Shown: positions 39,706 to 48,133 of the stretch, in pieces
Layout of the letters: each line of letters opens with the position of its first letter
Position numbering within the stretch: position 1 is the first letter of the stretch
Assembly (NCBI RefSeq): GCF_964213995.1
Contig: NW_027590197.1
Span: 62,001-126,000, forward strand
DNA length: 64,000 nt
From: Mustelus asterias
Taxonomy: Eukaryota
Direction: 5' to 3'
Translations under genes and position numbers: made by a program
Notes under the pieces: generated by a model
Told to the model about the DNA's origin: nothing
Database searches by the model: none
What the model saw: only the letters and a program-made list of their open reading frames with translations

Positions 39706-40241
39706 TGTGACTGGGAATCAATGTGGGTGAGCAGGCACTGAGATCTTGGGGCTAACTGGACTTGCTGTCATAGAGTCACACAGCACAGAAAGAGATTCTT
39801 CAGCCCATAAGGGAACAAGCGAAGAAAAGATGTTCCACAGAATCAGAATTGTCTATTCAGAATTTCTGTCCTGTACTTACGAGGATTAATTTTATAAACT
39901 CCTTTTACAGGCTCTGAGAAAGGGAGGAATTCCAAACAACAACATCAAAACAAACATGACATCCAACATCTACTCACTTGATTCATCAGCGCTTGAATAT
40001 TGTGGACCTTTGAATGTGGAATGAGAAATGTTTCTCTGTTTCTGTCTGAGGATTTCAAACTGAAAGTTTTGAAACAATTGACTGGAAAAGCACCGAGTGA
40101 GAGTGTTCCAGTGAACTGACTGTGGAAAGAGCTTTAACCAGTTATACAGCCTGATAGAACATCACAGCATTCACAGCACGGAGAAACCATACAGGTTTCA
40201 ACTGATTGTCCAACTTGGAGAGTCACAAGGACACTGGCACC

Positions 40242-40913
40242 ATGGAGAAACTGTGGAAATCTGGGGACTGTGGGAAGGGCTTCAATTACCCAACGCTGAA
40301 AACACATTACCATTGTCACACTGGGGAGACACCATTCACCTGCTCTGTCTGTGGGAAGCGATTCACTCAGTCATCCCATCTCACTGACCATCAACTTGTA
40401 CACAGTGATCAGAGACCTTTTAAATGTTCTGATTGTGAGAAGAGGTTTAAAAGCAAGAAGCATCTGGTAGCACATCAGCTTGTTCATACTGGGGAGAGGC
40501 CGTTCCTCTGCTCTGTGTGTGGGAAGAGATTCAATCGGTCATCCCACCTTCTGACACATCAGCAAGTTCACACTGGGGAGAGACCATTCCTCTGCTCTGT
40601 GTGTGGTAAAGGATTCATTCAGTCATCCCAACTTCTGAGACATCAGCGAGTTCACACTGGGGAGAGGCCATTTACCTGCTCTGAGTGTGGGAAAGGATTC
40701 AGTCAGTTTTCTGACCTTCTGGTACACCAACGGGTTCACACTGGGGAGAGGCCATTCACCTGTTCTGTGTGTCGGAACAGCTTTGCTCAGTCATCTACTC
40801 TTCAGAGACACCAACGAGTTCATACTGGAGAGAGGCCATTCACCTGCTCTGAGTGTGAGAAGGGATTCATTCAGTTATCCGACCTTCTGAGACACCAGCG
40901 AGTTCACAAATGA
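40242..40913 (+). CDS. C2H2 zinc-finger protein ZNF-7 (7 intact + 1 degenerate finger)
   Basis: caccATGG at 40242; first finger has Cys->Ser; acceptor at 39909-39910. Confidence 0.9.
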
Positions 40914-41996: not shown

Positions 41997-42785
41997 GTGA
42001 ATGAGGGGGCGGGGCTGGAACACCAATGAGAGCGGCGGGTCCTCCAACCAATCGGAGTGAATGAGGGGGCGGGGCTGGAGGACCGAGCGCGAGCAGCGAG
42101 TCCTCCAACCAATCGGAGTAAATGAGGGGCGGGGCTGGAGGACCGAGCGAGAGCGGCTCGTCTTCCAACCAATCGGAGTGAATGAGGGGCGGGGCTGACG
42201 GCGAGTTGCACTGTGGTGATCTGGAGCATGCGCAGTGCCGATCACTGAGGATTGAGGCGGTTGTGGAAATATTCAGTCCACGCGATAAAACGGGTAAATC
42301 AGGAATGAGTGATGGAGCCGGTGGGTGGGCGGGCTTGGAGGCTTTATAAAAATCCCGTGTACGCCTCAAGTCCCCAATAGGAAGCTCGGATTCGATATTT
42401 GAACCGTTGACAACTGCTCGGGCTTTTTCCCCGATTCAGGCCCGGGTGAACGACCGCCATCTTGACAGTGTGTCGCCGAGCGCACGCGCAGACAGAGGGA
42501 GCTCCAGGCTCAGCCCCGCCCCTCATTCAGTCTGATTGGTCGGAGGACCAGCCACTCCAGCTCGGTCCTCCAGCCCCGCCCCCTCTTCCTATTGGTCAGA
42601 ACTGCCGTCAATCAGTCCCCGGGCATTGTGAGCTGGAACAAACCCTTCAGAATCATTGTCAGCTCCCTGGTTTGCAGCTGCGGGGCTTCTCCCTCCCTCC
42701 CGGGAACAGGCCCAGGTTAACGGCCCCATCCTGGCTCAGCCACTGGAGGATGGTTCACATCAGAGGATGGGGGAGGGGGACAATA
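41997..42785. promoter_or_regulatory. Bidirectional promoter with ~60-bp CCAAT/GC-box tandem repeat (3.3 copies left, 1 inverted copy right)
   Basis: Units start at ~42001, 42061, 42122; NRF1-like motif ~42226; YY1 gccatcttg ~42456; likely drives ZNF-8. Confidence 0.65.
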
Positions 42786-42929: not shown

Positions 42930-43362
42930 CCCAGAGTTGCTGAGCAGAAACTGATAGCCAAGTTTCGCACACATGAGGACGGCCTCAACCGGGATCTTGG
43001 GTTCATGTCACACTATCTGTAACCCCCACGACTTGCCTGGACTTGCAAAATCTCACAAATTGTCCTGTCTGGAGACAATACACATCTCTTTAACCTGTGC
43101 TTAACCCTCTCTCCACTCGCATTGTCTGTACCTTTAAGACTTGATTACCTGTAAAGACTCGCATTCCAATCATTATTCTGTAAATTGAGTTTGTGTCTTT
43201 TTATGCCCTGTTTGTAATCAGAACTCCCACTCACCTGACGAAGGGGCAGCGCTCCGAAAGCTAGTGGCGTTTGCTACCAAATAAACCTGTTCGACCTTAA
43301 CCTGGTGTTGTGAGACTTCTTACTGTTTTTACACCAGTCCAACGCCAGTATCTCCACATCAT
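42930..43362 (+). mobile_element. Penelope-like element 3' end and terminal repeat
   Basis: RVAEQKLIAKFRTHEDGLNRD (GIY-YIG C-terminus) matches 61598-61688. Confidence 0.85.
43231..43267 (+). ncRNA. Minimal type I hammerhead ribozyme motif
   Basis: tcac-CTGACGA-a-GGGGC-agc-GCTCC-GAAA-gct-a-gtgg: intact core, stems I and II, palindromic AGCT in place of stem III. Confidence 0.7.
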
Positions 43363-43399
43363 GACATTTAAGGGGACAGTAAAAAAAAAAAAAAAAAAA

Positions 43400-46300
43400 G
43401 ACGGGTGGCACTTGAATCCCAGGGGGACCAATATCCTGGCGGGAAGGTTGGCTAAGGCTACTGGTGAGACTTTAAACTAGAAAGGTTGGGGGGAGGGAAT
43501 CGAAATGAGGGGACTGAGAGCGAGGAGGTTAGCTCGCAAATAGATAAGGAATGTAGACAGGGTAAGAGGGAGGTTAGACGAGTGAGGGAGAAGGGAAGTG
43601 CTCAGGCTGAAGGTCTGAGATGTGTCTATTTTAATGCCAGGAGTGTAGTGAATAAAGTGGATGAGCTTGGAGCGTGGATTGCTGCTTCGAATTGTGATGT
43701 GGTGGCCATTACGGAGACTTGGATGTCTCAGGGACAGGACTGGGTGCTTCAGGTGCCGGGTTTTAGATGTTTCAGGAAGGACAGGGAGGGAGGCAAGAGA
43801 GGGGGGGGAGTGGCACTGTTGATCAGGGATAGTGTCACGGCTGTAGAGAAGGTGGACGCCGTGGAGGGACTGACTACGGAATCTCTGTGGGTGGAGGTTA
43901 GGAACAGGAAGGGGTCGGTAACTTTGCTGGGTGTTTTCTATAGGCCGCCCAATAGTAACAGAGATGTTGAGGAGCAGATGGGGAAACAGATCCTGGAGAG
44001 ATGTAGGAATAACAGAGTTGTCGTGATGGGAGATTTTAATTTCCCAAACATAGATTGGAATATCCCTAGGGCTAGGGGTTTGGATGGAGAGGAGTTTGTT
44101 AGGTGTGTCCAGGAGAGTTTCCTGACACAGTATGTGGATAAGCCTACTAGAGGAGAGGCTGTTCTTGATCTGGTGCTGGCTAATGAACCTGGACAGGTGG
44201 AGGATCTCTCGGTGGGTGAGCATCTTGGGGATAGCGATCATAATTCTATCTCCTTCACGATAGCATTGGAAAGAGATAGGGTCAGGCAGGCTAGGAAAGT
44301 GTTTCTCTGGAGTAAAGGGAAATACAGTGTCATCAGGGAGGAAATTAGACGGGTAAATTGGAAGGAGGCATTCTTGGGGAAAAGTGCCGAAGGAAAGTGG
44401 AGGATTTTCAAGGAATGTTTGTCTGGAGCTCTGCATGACAACGTTCCGATGAGACAGGGGGGTGTTGGTAGGGTACGGGAACCGTGGTGCACGAAGGTTG
44501 TGATGAACCTGGTAAATAAGAAAAGAGAGGCGTACAGAAGGTTCAGAGAGCTAGGAGGTGTTAAGGATTTAGAGGAGTATACGCGATGTAGGAAGGAGCT
44601 TAAGAAGGAAATTAGGAGAGCGAGAAGGGGTCATGAGAAGACCTTGGCGGGTAAGATTAAGGAGAATCCCAAGGCTTTCTACAAATATGTCAAGAGTAAA
44701 AGGATGAGATGTGAAGGCATAGGACCCTTAAAAGGTGAAGGGGGAAAAGTTTGTGCGGAACCGTTAGAAATGGCGGAGGTGCTTAATGAATACTTTACCT
44801 CGGTATTCACGGTGGAAAGGGATCTGGGTGGTTGTACTGCTGGATTGCGGAGGACAGAAAGGATCGAGCATGTGGACATAAAGAAAGAGGATGTGTTGGA
44901 ACTATTGAATGGCATCAAGGTTGGTAAGTCGCCGGGACCGGATGGGATGTACCCCAGGTTACTGTGGGAGGCGAGGGAGGAGATTGCGGAGCCTTTGGCG
45001 ATGATCTTTGCATCGTCGATGGAGACGGGAGAGGTTCCGGAGGATTGGAGGATTGCGGATGTGGTCCCTATATTCAAGAAAGGGAACAGGGACAGCCCGG
45101 GAAATTACCGACCGGTGAGTCTAACCTCAGTGGTTGGTAAGTTGATGGAGAGGATCCTGAGAGACAGGATTTATGATCATCTAGAGAAGTTTAGTATGAT
45201 CAACAGTAGGCAGCACGGCTTTGTCAGGGGCAGGTCGTGCCTTACGAGCCTGGTTGAGTTCTTTGAAAATGTGACCAAGCACATTGACGAAGGAAGAGCG
45301 GTGGATGTGGTCTATATGGACTTCAGCAAAGCGTTCGATAAGGTCCCCCATGCAAGACTTCTTGAGAAAGTGAGAGGGCATGGGATCCAAGGGGCTGTTG
45401 CCTTGTGGATCCAGAACTGGCTTGCCTGCAGAAGGCAGAGAGTGGCTGTGGAGGGGTCTTTCTCTGCATGGAGGTCAGTGACCAGTGGAGTGCCCCAGGG
45501 ATCTGTTCTGGGACCCTTGCTGTTTGTCATTTTCATAAATGACCTGGATGAGGAAGTGGAGGGATGGGTTGGTAAGTTTGCTGACGACACCAAGGTAGGT
45601 GGTGTTGTGGATAGTTTGGAGGGATGTCAGAAGTTGCAGCGAGACATAGATAGAATGCAGGACTGGGCGGAGAAGTGGCAGATGGACTTCAACCCGGATA
45701 AGTGTGTGGTGATCCATTTTGGCAGATCCAATGGGATGGAGCAGCAGTATAAAATGAAGGGTACCATTCTTAGCAGTGTAGAGGATCAGAGGGACCTTGG
45801 GGTCCGGGTCCATAGGACTCTTAAATCGGCCTCGCAGGTGGAGGATGCGGTCAAGAAGGCGTATGGCGTACTAGCCTTCATTAATCGAGGGATTGAGTTT
45901 AGGAGTCGGGAGATAATGCTGCAGCTTTATAGGACCCTGGTTAGACCCCACTTGGAGTACTGCGCGCAGTTCTGGTCACCTCATTACAGGAAAGATGTTG
46001 AAGCCATTGAAAGGGTGCAGAGGAGATTTACAAGGATGTTGCCTGGATTGGGGGGCATGCCTTATGAGGATAGGTTGAGGGAGCTTGGTCTCTTCTCCCT
46101 GGAGAGACGAAGGATGAGAGGTGACCTGATAGAGGTTTACAAGATGTTGAGGGGTCTGGATAGGGTGGACTCTCAGAGGCTATTTCCAAGGGCTGAAATG
46201 GTTGCTACGAGAGGACACAGGTTTAAGGTGCTGGGGGGTAGGTACAGGGGGGATGTCAGGGGTAAGTTTTTCACTCAGAGGGTGGTGGGTGAGTGGAATC

Positions 46301-46468
46301 GGCTGACGTCGGTGGTGGTGGAGGCAAACTCGTTGGGGTCTTTTAAGAGACTTCTGGATGAGTACATGGGATTTAATGGGATTGAGGGCTATAGATAGGC
46401 CTAGAGGTGGGGATGTGATCGGCGCAACTTGTGGGCCGAAGGGCCTGTTTGTGCTGTGGCTTTCTATG
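43400..46468 (+). mobile_element. Young CR1 LINE, 5'-truncated within ORF1, ORF2 intact
   Basis: ORF1 C-terminus DGWHLNPRGTNILAGRLAKATGETLN* (esterase DGxH motif), full ORF2, ttctatg tail; preceded by an A-run. Confidence 0.95.
43486..46398 (+). CDS. CR1 ORF2 protein (APE endonuclease + reverse transcriptase)
   Basis: 970 aa uninterrupted: YFNARS, ITETW, GDFN, SDH endonuclease motifs; DFSKAFD, PQGSVLGP, FADD RT motifs. No ATG before 43723. Confidence 0.95.
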   Translation: MGGGNRNEGTESEEVSSQIDKECRQGKREVRRVREKGSAQAEGLRCVYFNARSVVNKVDELGAWIAASNCDVVAITETWMSQGQDWVLQVPGFRCFRKDREGGKRGGGVALLIRDSVTAVEKVDAVEGLTTESLWVEVRNRKGSVTLLGVFYRPPNSNRDVEEQMGKQILERCRNNRVVVMGDFNFPNIDWNIPRARGLDGEEFVRCVQESFLTQYVDKPTRGEAVLDLVLANEPGQVEDLSVGEHLGDSDHNSISFTIALERDRVRQARKVFLWSKGKYSVIREEIRRVNWKEAFLGKSAEGKWRIFKECLSGALHDNVPMRQGGVGRVREPWCTKVVMNLVNKKREAYRRFRELGGVKDLEEYTRCRKELKKEIRRARRGHEKTLAGKIKENPKAFYKYVKSKRMRCEGIGPLKGEGGKVCAEPLEMAEVLNEYFTSVFTVERDLGGCTAGLRRTERIEHVDIKKEDVLELLNGIKVGKSPGPDGMYPRLLWEAREEIAEPLAMIFASSMETGEVPEDWRIADVVPIFKKGNRDSPGNYRPVSLTSVVGKLMERILRDRIYDHLEKFSMINSRQHGFVRGRSCLTSLVEFFENVTKHIDEGRAVDVVYMDFSKAFDKVPHARLLEKVRGHGIQGAVALWIQNWLACRRQRVAVEGSFSAWRSVTSGVPQGSVLGPLLFVIFINDLDEEVEGWVGKFADDTKVGGVVDSLEGCQKLQRDIDRMQDWAEKWQMDFNPDKCVVIHFGRSNGMEQQYKMKGTILSSVEDQRDLGVRVHRTLKSASQVEDAVKKAYGVLAFINRGIEFRSREIMLQLYRTLVRPHLEYCAQFWSPHYRKDVEAIERVQRRFTRMLPGLGGMPYEDRLRELGLFSLERRRMRGDLIEVYKMLRGLDRVDSQRLFPRAEMVATRGHRFKVLGGRYRGDVRGKFFTQRVVGEWNRLTSVVVEANSLGSFKRLLDEYMGFNGIEGYR

Positions 46469-46496
46469 TAAATTAATATAGGACAGATGTAGGACA

Positions 46497-48133
46497 CTGC
46501 GGGCGTGCGGTGGACTGAAAGGATTGAGTATGTGGACTTTAAGAAAGAGGTTGTGCTGGAATCTTTGAATGGCATCAAGATAGATAAGTCGCCGGGTCCG
46601 GATGGGATGTACCCCAGGTTACTGTGGGAGGCGAGCGAAGAGATTGCAGAGCCTCTGGCGATGATCTTTGCGTCGTCGATGGAGACGGGAGAGGTGCCGG
46701 AGGATTGGAGGATTGCGGATGTGGTTCCTATTTTCAAGAAGGGGAATAGGGATAGCCCAGGTAATTACCGACCGGTGAGTCTAACCTCAGTCGTTGGTAA
46801 ACTGATGGAGAAGATCCTGAGGGACAGGATATATGAGCATTTAGAGAGGTTTAGTATGCTCAAGAATACTCAGCACGGCTTTGTCAAGGGCAGATCGTGC
46901 CTTATGAGCCTGGTGGAGTTCTTCGAAAATGTGACTAAACACATTGACGAAGGGAAGGCGGTAGATGTGGTTTATATGTATTTTAGCAAGGCGTTCGATA
47001 AGGTCCCCTATGCAAGGCTTCCAGAAAAAGTAAGAGGGCATGGGATCCAAGGGGCTGCTGCCCGGTGGATCCAGAACTGGCTTGCCCAAAGGAGGCAGAG
47101 AGTGGGTATAGATGGGTATTTTTCTCAATGGAGGTCGGTCACCAGTGGTGTGCCCCAGGGATCTGTTCTGGGATTCTTGCTGTTTGTCATTTTCATAAAT
47201 GACCTGGATGAGGAAGCGGAGGGATGGGTTGGTAAGTTTGCCGATGACACGAAGGTTGGTGGGGTTGTGGATAGTCTGGAGGGATGTCAGAAGTTACAGA
47301 GGGACATTGATAGGATGCAAGACTGGGCGGACAAGTGGCAGATGGACTTCAACCCAGATAAATGCGTCGTGGTCCATTTTGGTAGGTCAAATGGGATGAA
47401 GGAGTACAATATAAAGGGAAAGACTCTTAGTACTGGAGAGGATCAGAAGGACCTTGGGGTCCGGATCCATAGGACTCTAAAATCGGCCCCACAGGTGGAG
47501 GAGGTGGTTAAGAAGGCATAAGGTGTGCTGGCATTTATCAATCGAGGGTTTGAGTTTAGGAGTCCGGGGATAATGATGCAGCTATATAAGACCCTCGTCA
47601 GACCCCACTTGGAGTACTGTGCTCAGTTCTGGTCGCCTCACTATAGGAAGGATGTGGAAAAGATTGAAAGGGTGCAGAGGAGATTTACAAGGATGTTGCT
47701 TGGATTGAGTGGCATGCCTTATGAGGATAGGCTGAGGGAGCTCGGTCTTTTCTCCTTGGAGAGACGAAGGATGAGAGGAGACCTAATAGAGGTGTATAAG
47801 ATGTTGAGAGGCATAGATCGGGTGGACTCTCAGAGGCTTTTTCCCAGGGTGGAAATATCTGCTACGCGAGGACACAGGTTTAGGGTCTGGGGGGTAGGTA
47901 CAGGGGAGATGTTAGGGGTAGGTTTTTCACACAGAGGGTGGTGGGCGAGTGGAATCGGCTGCCGTCAGTGGTTGTGGAGGCGAACTCAATAGGGTCTTTT
48001 AAGAGACTCCTGGATGAGTACATGGGTCCTAATAGGATGGAGGGTTGTTGGTAGGTCTAGAAGGTAGGGATGTGTTCGGCACAACTTGTGGGCCGAAGGG
48101 CCTGTTTGTGCTGTAGTTTTTCTATGTTTCTAT
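46497..48133 (+). mobile_element. Second CR1 copy, 5'-truncated and inactivated
   Basis: RT ORF 46505-47521 ends in a premature TAA; frameshift near 47890; ttctatgtttctat tail. Confidence 0.93.

Follow-up and report, generated by a model that had tools for sequence, protein, structure and literature searches.

How is the second open reading frame (ORF2) of a LINE retrotransposon translated if it opens only at the very end of ORF1 and its first AUG lies inside the endonuclease region? This question is raised by an element on the plus strand of a 64,000-nt stretch of the Mustelus asterias genome (NCBI RefSeq assembly GCF_964213995.1, contig NW_027590197.1, positions 62,001 to 126,000; hereafter the window, to which all coordinates refer). 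The ORF1 remnant (43400-43480) consists of the last 26 codons (43400-43477), which encode the esterase end with the D-G-x-H-L motif, the last helix and a terminal Leu-Asn, and of the stop codon TAG (43478-43480). Its final codons, ACT TTA AAC TAG, place the heptamer T TTA AAC (43471-43477), the predicted site of a -1 shift, in X XXY YYZ phase directly before the stop. In the -1 frame a TGA (43465-43467) closes ORF2 one codon upstream of the heptamer, and the frame is then open from 43468 to 46398 (976 codons). The linker from the shift site to the first endonuclease motif (43477-43626) comprises 50 codons without stop or AUG and is followed by the intact ORF2 body (43627-46398) with APE-type endonuclease and reverse transcriptase (PF03372 and PF00078, both above the Pfam cut-off). 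The first in-frame ATG of ORF2 (43723, codon 86) lies downstream of the YFNARS motif and of Glu83, which aligns with Glu43 of the human L1 endonuclease, presumably a catalytic residue of that enzyme. The first-pass annotation, which had read this junction as a -1 programmed ribosomal frameshift, proved correct in the positions of the TGA, the heptamer, the TAG, the opening of ORF2 and the first ATG, in the phase of the heptamer, and in its argument that a start at 43723 would lose a needed part of the endonuclease. The word TTTAAAC alone is common, with 21 matches on both strands of the window, and it is because of position, phase and codon-level conservation (see below) that we regard this occurrence as being beyond chance. 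Readthrough of the ORF1 stop was rejected as an explanation, since frame 0 runs into more stops downstream.

The copy in the window is 5′-truncated and contains neither the 5′ UTR nor the ORF1 start. The truncation point is marked by an A19 run (43381-43399), at a place where intact copies have a 6-A run inside ORF1. The ORF1 assumed earlier is therefore present in the window with respect to its end, but not as a full reading frame, as only 26 codons follow the A19 run. In other, full-length copies ORF1 has 305 codons and encodes an N-terminal zinc-finger-like Cys motif and an SGNH esterase; PF13472 was above cut-off in the ORF1 of the full-length copy L005, and a profile of tetrapod-type and related ORF1s matched the ZfL2-1 esterase 4C1B with an E-value of 6e-29. 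Over 3,076 nt the window copy is 99.7% identical to a full-length copy. Its 3′ UTR (46399-46469), with a GGGCC-GAA-GGGCC hairpin and a TTCTATG end, matches that of the full-length copy L250. CR1 elements are characterized by a 3′ hairpin with short tandem repeats, the lack of a poly(A) tail, and dispersed, 5′-truncated copies. The element has such a 3′ end without poly(A), its copies are dispersed and 5′-truncated, and together with the APE- and RT-encoding ORF2 and the SGNH-type ORF1 this identifies it as a CR1 LINE of the esterase-ORF1 type. In an ORF1 tree the family of the window falls among the tetrapod-type ORF1s (support 97), apart from a group with a D-G-x-H-P motif, and its named ORF1 relatives, with 51-73% identity, are from rays and skates. 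One relative with 54% identity (P0019) carries the NCBI label of an SGNH hydrolase from Pseudomonas aeruginosa, which is likely due to contamination by host DNA. Among 845 candidate copies, 40 were scored, and all 40 were identical over 360 nt spanning the junction. The family is therefore very young, and its AUG-free lineage was amplified recently.

Because ORF1 ends on a slippery heptamer and a stop, and ORF2, shifted back by one base, has no usable start codon, we consider it very probable that the ORF2 of this CR1 family is produced by -1 programmed frameshifting, which would yield a fused ORF1-ORF2 protein of approximately 1,280 residues. According to this model, most ribosomes would terminate at the UAG and release the 305-aa ORF1 protein, while in a minority of them the tRNA-Leu and tRNA-Asn bound to the heptamer would slip back by one base (tandem -1 slippage). 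The slipped ribosomes would then read a linker of 44-76 codons and continue through endonuclease and reverse transcriptase, giving a fusion of 305 plus 973 residues. The window would contain a truncated copy of its family's signal.

To analyze the conservation of the junction, five divergent ORF1 proteins, a partial ORF1 and a distant endonuclease served as queries for fetching copies from the genome, and the copies were anchored at the D-G-x-H-L motif, 21 codons upstream of the ORF1 stop. This gave 239 anchors, of which 226 belonged to eight families; 220 copies were counted after dropping six places fetched twice. Outside the count are nine anchors from the same genome in small clusters (including one TTTAAAG TAA junction and two truncated ends), four metagenomic anchors, which were treated separately, four bacterial loci, the locus L008, which was missed by the anchor though the site is present, and nine of 30 endonuclease-anchored loci in which no ORF1 end was found. 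TTTAAAC followed by TAR was kept in 212 of the 220 copies, in families with 45-77% protein identity. The endonuclease frame was -1 in 181 copies, 0 in 14 and +1 in 12, and was unscored in 13. The ORF2 frame, on which the earlier reading depended, is thus predominantly -1, and indels in those deviating copies that were inspected, which are a subset, suggest that the 26 copies in frame 0 or +1 and the 13 unscored ones are decayed. In family A, 29 copies had been fetched by identity of the junction itself, so that their agreement is circular, but 21 had been fetched by the endonuclease and are non-circular; all of these 21 possess the heptamer. The ORF1 queries end in Leu-Asn, which biases the search toward these residues, not toward their codons.

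Some deviating copies showed features of their own. In family C (L061-L090) the length of the G-run downstream of the stop varies among copies, as in a mutable homopolymer, and this explains several of the copies with the endonuclease in frame 0 or +1. In L103/L148, which represent one place, a deletion removes heptamer and stop and fuses ORF1 to ORF2 in frame 0, and L230 has an open frame of 785 codons with no stop near the anchor. Both are single copies that were not amplified within the sample.

Codon-level conservation was analyzed with one real copy per family (n = 8), picked among open copies, by aligning the last 140 codons. Four-fold third positions of these representatives are on average 49% identical (24-73%). 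Among 22 invariant columns with four- or six-fold degenerate codons, the terminal TTA was the sole invariant codon, although TTA accounts for only 13 of 113 Leu codons, and among ten two-fold columns the invariant codons were AAC and one Glu codon. The synonymous variation in the Leu-Asn codons that would have spoken against a shift site is thus absent from the eight representatives. The codon upstream of TTA encodes R, T, G, S or D, yet ends with T in all eight. An invariant third base was found in six of 57 variable columns, and in the five besides the pre-TTA codon this base is G. The linkers have modal lengths of 44, 44, 47, 49, 50, 50, 59 and 76 codons in the eight families, with -1 phase in all, and the ORF1 stop is TAG or TAA in 12 of 12 lineages. 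The eight families share ancestry; as judged from the codon comparison, the heptamer is conserved beyond what ancestry or protein need would explain. A codon-position comparison of the endonuclease was set aside, as it gave no codon pattern, probably owing to an indel in the family F copy, and in the linker 12 of 26 differences were at third positions, a number too small to use.

These data bear on the idea that the heptamer was kept for another reason, be it the Leu-Asn protein end or a signal for packaging or transcription in RNA or DNA, and that the -1 layout was inherited and is unused. Leu-Asn does close the last esterase helix, and its distance from the D-G-x-H-L motif is fixed, at 26 residues in 29 of 37 cases. 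However, a protein constraint cannot fix the codons TTA and AAC or the T before them, the solved chain of the ZfL2-1 esterase (4C1B) ends two residues past the last match, whereas the CR1 profile has four, and five of six relatives of the D-G-x-H-P type do not end in Leu-Asn. ORF2 would need a start regardless. We regard this explanation as scarcely credible.

Another way to obtain ORF2 would be a start of its own at a linker AUG or a near-cognate codon, by leaky or internal initiation or from a spliced or subgenomic RNA. Such AUGs exist: in open copies a linker AUG was found in 28 of 28 members of family B (codon 23), 17 of 18 of family E (codon 46) and 15 of 49 of family A (codon 36), and in the metagenomic loci L091 (codon 61), L094 (codon 26) and L095 (codon 36); moreover, the near-cognate codons TTG, ATA, GTG and CTG are present in the linker of the window. 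In contrast, no open copy has an AUG before the endonuclease motif in families C (0/15), D (0/37), F (0/5), G (0/13) and H (0/3), and in the lineage of the window an AUG upstream of this motif is likewise absent. The description of ORF2 as AUG-less thus holds for the family of the window and for families C, D, F, G and H, but not for B, E, the sister lineage of the window's family and the three metagenomic loci. This sister lineage has a linker AUG, and both lineages, with and without AUG, were amplified. Since the AUG positions are unshared and sister lineages of both kinds were amplified, the linker AUGs appear to be internal residues, although reinitiation might occur in the AUG-bearing lineages. 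Furthermore, each representative (chosen among open copies) has a -1 frame that stays open as far back as the heptamer, whereas only 0.06-12% of base shuffles are open. A search for spliced joints in four runs gave none, which is a weak argument, as it covered contigs and three of the runs are merely guessed to be RNA. Taken together, an independent start of ORF2 is very unlikely, and frameshifting at the heptamer remains our preferred explanation.

A metagenome scan provided five loci of more distant relatives, four of which contain the junction. In L091 and L092, ORF1 ends with G GGA AAC TAG at the same place and in the same phase; L094 has G TTA AAC TAG, likewise in this place and phase, and L095, after a premature stop, has T TTA AAC TAA in this position. 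In L091, L094 and L095 the -1 frame runs open into the endonuclease; L092 is too short to show ORF2. Linkers of 38, 46 and 68 codons occur among the metagenomic loci, all in -1 phase. In the M. asterias genome, the G GGA AAC form gave 21 pattern matches compared to 50 for a reversed control, none of them at an intact ORF1 end, and therefore no such family was found there. Of 148 cluster representatives of related ORF1 proteins, 74 include the esterase end, which is Leu-Asn in 37, Gly-Asn in seven, another residue plus Asn in six, and otherwise in 24. In 36 of the 37 Leu-Asn representatives the preceding residue has a codon that ends in T, and Gly-Asn is preceded by Gln (6) or Ala (1), both of which permit a G-ending codon. 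The names in seven looked-up Leu-Asn clusters include a snake, turtles, a frog, a swallow, a monitor lizard and an eel, and rays also carry named Leu-Asn ORF1 ends. In a quick tree of 80 esterase ORF1 rows, calculated with the tails left out, the vertebrate-type clade (support 97) has Leu-Asn in 32 of 36 rows, and a clade of 18 rows (support 95) contains all nine Gly-Asn rows. Further clades, including the D-G-x-H-P group, have neither end, and because this applies to 28 of the 80 rows, the junction signal is not universal among esterase LINEs. The esterase ORF1s P0149, P0132, P0141, P0124 and P0145 end with Lys-Asn, Glu-Asn or Ser-Asn and lie amid the Gly-Asn and Leu-Asn clades; judging from the protein ends, Lys-Asn may correspond to A AAA AAC, which would be a slippery heptamer of a third kind. 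No relatives were found in viral contigs, in which the 15 loci picked up by pattern scans had neither an esterase end nor an endonuclease motif, or in plasmids. A search of prokaryote genomes returned just four bacterial SGNH genes, which were dropped.

The exchange of heptamers is relevant for a third explanation, AUG-independent termination-reinitiation as proposed for mammalian L1, by which ribosomes would resume translation in the -1 frame at the UAG or close to it and make a separate ORF2 protein, with heptamer and G-run serving as the reinitiation signal. The stop abuts the heptamer and no classical stimulator was found, both of which would suit such a mechanism; in the parts considered here, a recoding review favours AUG-independent initiation for mammalian LINE ORF2 (Atkins 2016, PMC5009743), and L1 is reported to tolerate replacement of the first ATG by other sense codons (PMC1965478). 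The same section of the review lists U_UUA_AAC and G_GGA_AAC among the heptamers on which mammalian ribosomes shift most readily. Reinitiation leaves unexplained why one recognised heptamer should be swapped for the other in exact X XXY YYZ phase, and why a third-position T is kept under five different amino acids, and we consider it unlikely. The gag-pol-like fusion suggested by the first-pass annotation, by contrast, gains support from the conservation of the heptamer and from its swap in a distant clade, both of which are consistent with a function in frameshifting.

Further examples of the junction come from the supplement of a published survey (PMC13343379), whose rows hold 400 letters per cell. 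In the part covered, 17 of 20 matches to heptamer plus stop lie at an ORF1-like end as judged by eye and three elsewhere, a circular search for which the denominator is unavailable. The matches are from alligator, crocodile, frog, coelacanth, bowfin, chimaera, rays and sharks and include one element labelled Crack. A G-run was seen by eye in about 12 of these 17 rows, and several are without one.

As stimulators of the shift, a G-tract region and a small hairpin had been put forward, and both are present in the window. The longer G-tract spans 43484-43512 and contains the first G-run, a G6-A-G3 motif (43488-43497) located 10 nt past the heptamer, which is conserved and a candidate stimulator. 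The 5-bp gcgag/ctcgc hairpin (43520-43537, with arms 43520-43524 and 43533-43537) was rejected, as it starts 42 nt past the heptamer, much farther than the spacer of 5-8 nt given in PMC3919603, and is not common to other families. A motif of at least four G, followed by 1-4 nt and GGG, a pattern defined after the data had been seen, is present in 157 of 167 open copies, where it begins 5-9 nt past the stop. It is also present in all four metagenomic junctions, 4-9 nt past the stop, with a background of 24 occurrences in 23,805 nt. In L094 and L095 it stands in another codon phase, and the constraint therefore looks nucleotide-level. A four-tract G-quadruplex was predicted in five of 12 representatives. 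A conserved local fold was not detected in the 70 and 120 nt past the stop (z-scores -1.6 to +2.4, cross-family consensus energy 0.0), and folding z-scores, consensus energy and long-range duplexes gave no base-paired stimulator 5-9 nt downstream. In the search for a long-range partner of the G-run, the best duplexes lay at differing places in nine of ten longer loci, while one locus gave no junction, and two C-rich spots in coding sequence that recurred near -430 and +460 were unconvincing as partners. We suppose, with less certainty than for the slippage itself, that the G-run 7-12 nt past the heptamer and the adjacent stop might supply the pause, the G-run possibly acting by binding a protein or by forming a small G-quadruplex rather than a pseudoknot.

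The proposed organization resembles retroviral gag-pol and coronaviral 1a/1b, in which likewise a structural ORF is followed by a polymerase ORF. In contrast to these sites, no conserved pseudoknot or hairpin was found for CR1, no protease domain was seen in ORF2, and the stop abuts the site. A stop codon directly after the shift site also occurs in RSV and luteoviruses. Human L1 and SART1 share with CR1 a bicistronic LINE RNA and low-level ORF2. SART1 ORF2 uses a UAAUG stop-start. L1 differs from CR1 in that its ORFs do not overlap and AUG-independent initiation is thought to be used, according to the sections considered of PMC5009743 and PMC1965478. A LINE precedent is provided by the APE-type non-LTR elements TRE5-A and TRE3-A of Dictyostelium, for which a figure legend in the review PMC5911963 states that a -1 frameshift is required for ORF2; CR1 is therefore not the first LINE with a claimed -1 frameshift. 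The TRE elements differ from CR1 in host kingdom and element family, target tRNA genes and are poly(A)-tailed. Regarding the stimulator, two comparable systems have been described: PRRSV nsp2, with a short, C-rich, protein-bound motif 11 nt past the shift site and no RNA structure (PMC7939443), and synthetic reporters, in which a G-quadruplex 5-8 nt past UUUAAAC caused up to approximately 7% -1 shift (PMC3919603). The CR1 motif, a candidate signal, differs from these in being G-rich and in having just two long tracts in most lineages.

Vertebrate CR1 elements with esterase ORF1 were described previously (subgroup 7, ORF1 type IVB, PMC4120745; survey PMC13343379) and have the same Cys motif, SGNH ORF1 and APE- and RT-encoding ORF2. 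In the main texts of both papers and the examined part of the supplement, the word "frameshift" does not occur, and in the passages considered no mode of ORF2 translation is proposed; CR1 is likewise not mentioned in the examined part of the recoding review PMC5009743. No report of CR1 frameshifting was found in the portion of the literature covered, which does not extend to Haas 1997, Kajikawa 1997, Kapitonov & Jurka 2003 and Repbase, and novelty is therefore claimed provisionally. A broader generalization, for which we see slightly less than an even chance, is that CR1 elements, the predominant LINEs of birds, reptiles and sharks, and some esterase LINEs of non-vertebrate type make a gag-pol-like fusion by -1 frameshifting, that the stop and a G-run about 10 nt downstream constitute a new, structure-free stimulator, probably read by a protein, and that this signal predates the split of the lineages. 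Production of LINE ORF2 is usually explained by L1-type reinitiation. If frameshifting applies, the CR1 enzyme would be a fusion carrying the ORF1 coiled-coil and the esterase, which would account for its entry into the RNP and would fix the ORF1:ORF2 ratio. CR1 ORF2 proteins annotated from the first Met would lack catalytic residues, expression constructs for CR1 would need to include the junction, and a natural -1 signal without apparent pseudoknot would be added to those known.

In the neighbourhood of the element, a second, 5′-truncated CR1 ORF2 fragment with 86% protein identity (46493-48045) is located directly behind the 3′ end of the first copy. Back-to-back CR1 copies are also present in L002, and L102, L114 and L072 have two ORF1-end anchors each. 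The sequence just before the insertion (42930-43360) resembles the end of a Penelope-like element, in our estimation, and its part 42930-43022 gave no Pfam match. Positions 41997-42197 contain 3.3 copies of a 60-nt unit, with similar words in reversed orientation near 42500-42610; the unit includes what we take to be a GC box and a CCAAT-like word, and presumably represents a promoter region. A C2H2 zinc-finger array (40206-40913, seven Pfam stretches) lies 2.5 kb upstream of the element. Finally, the flanking sequence provides an ATG (43361) that shares the frame of the ORF1 remnant through the A19 run. The resulting mini-ORF of 39 codons (43361-43480) terminates at the slippery site and, were it transcribed, might deliver ribosomes to the intact ORF2 of the window copy; this arrangement depends on the length of the A-run and is probably due to chance.
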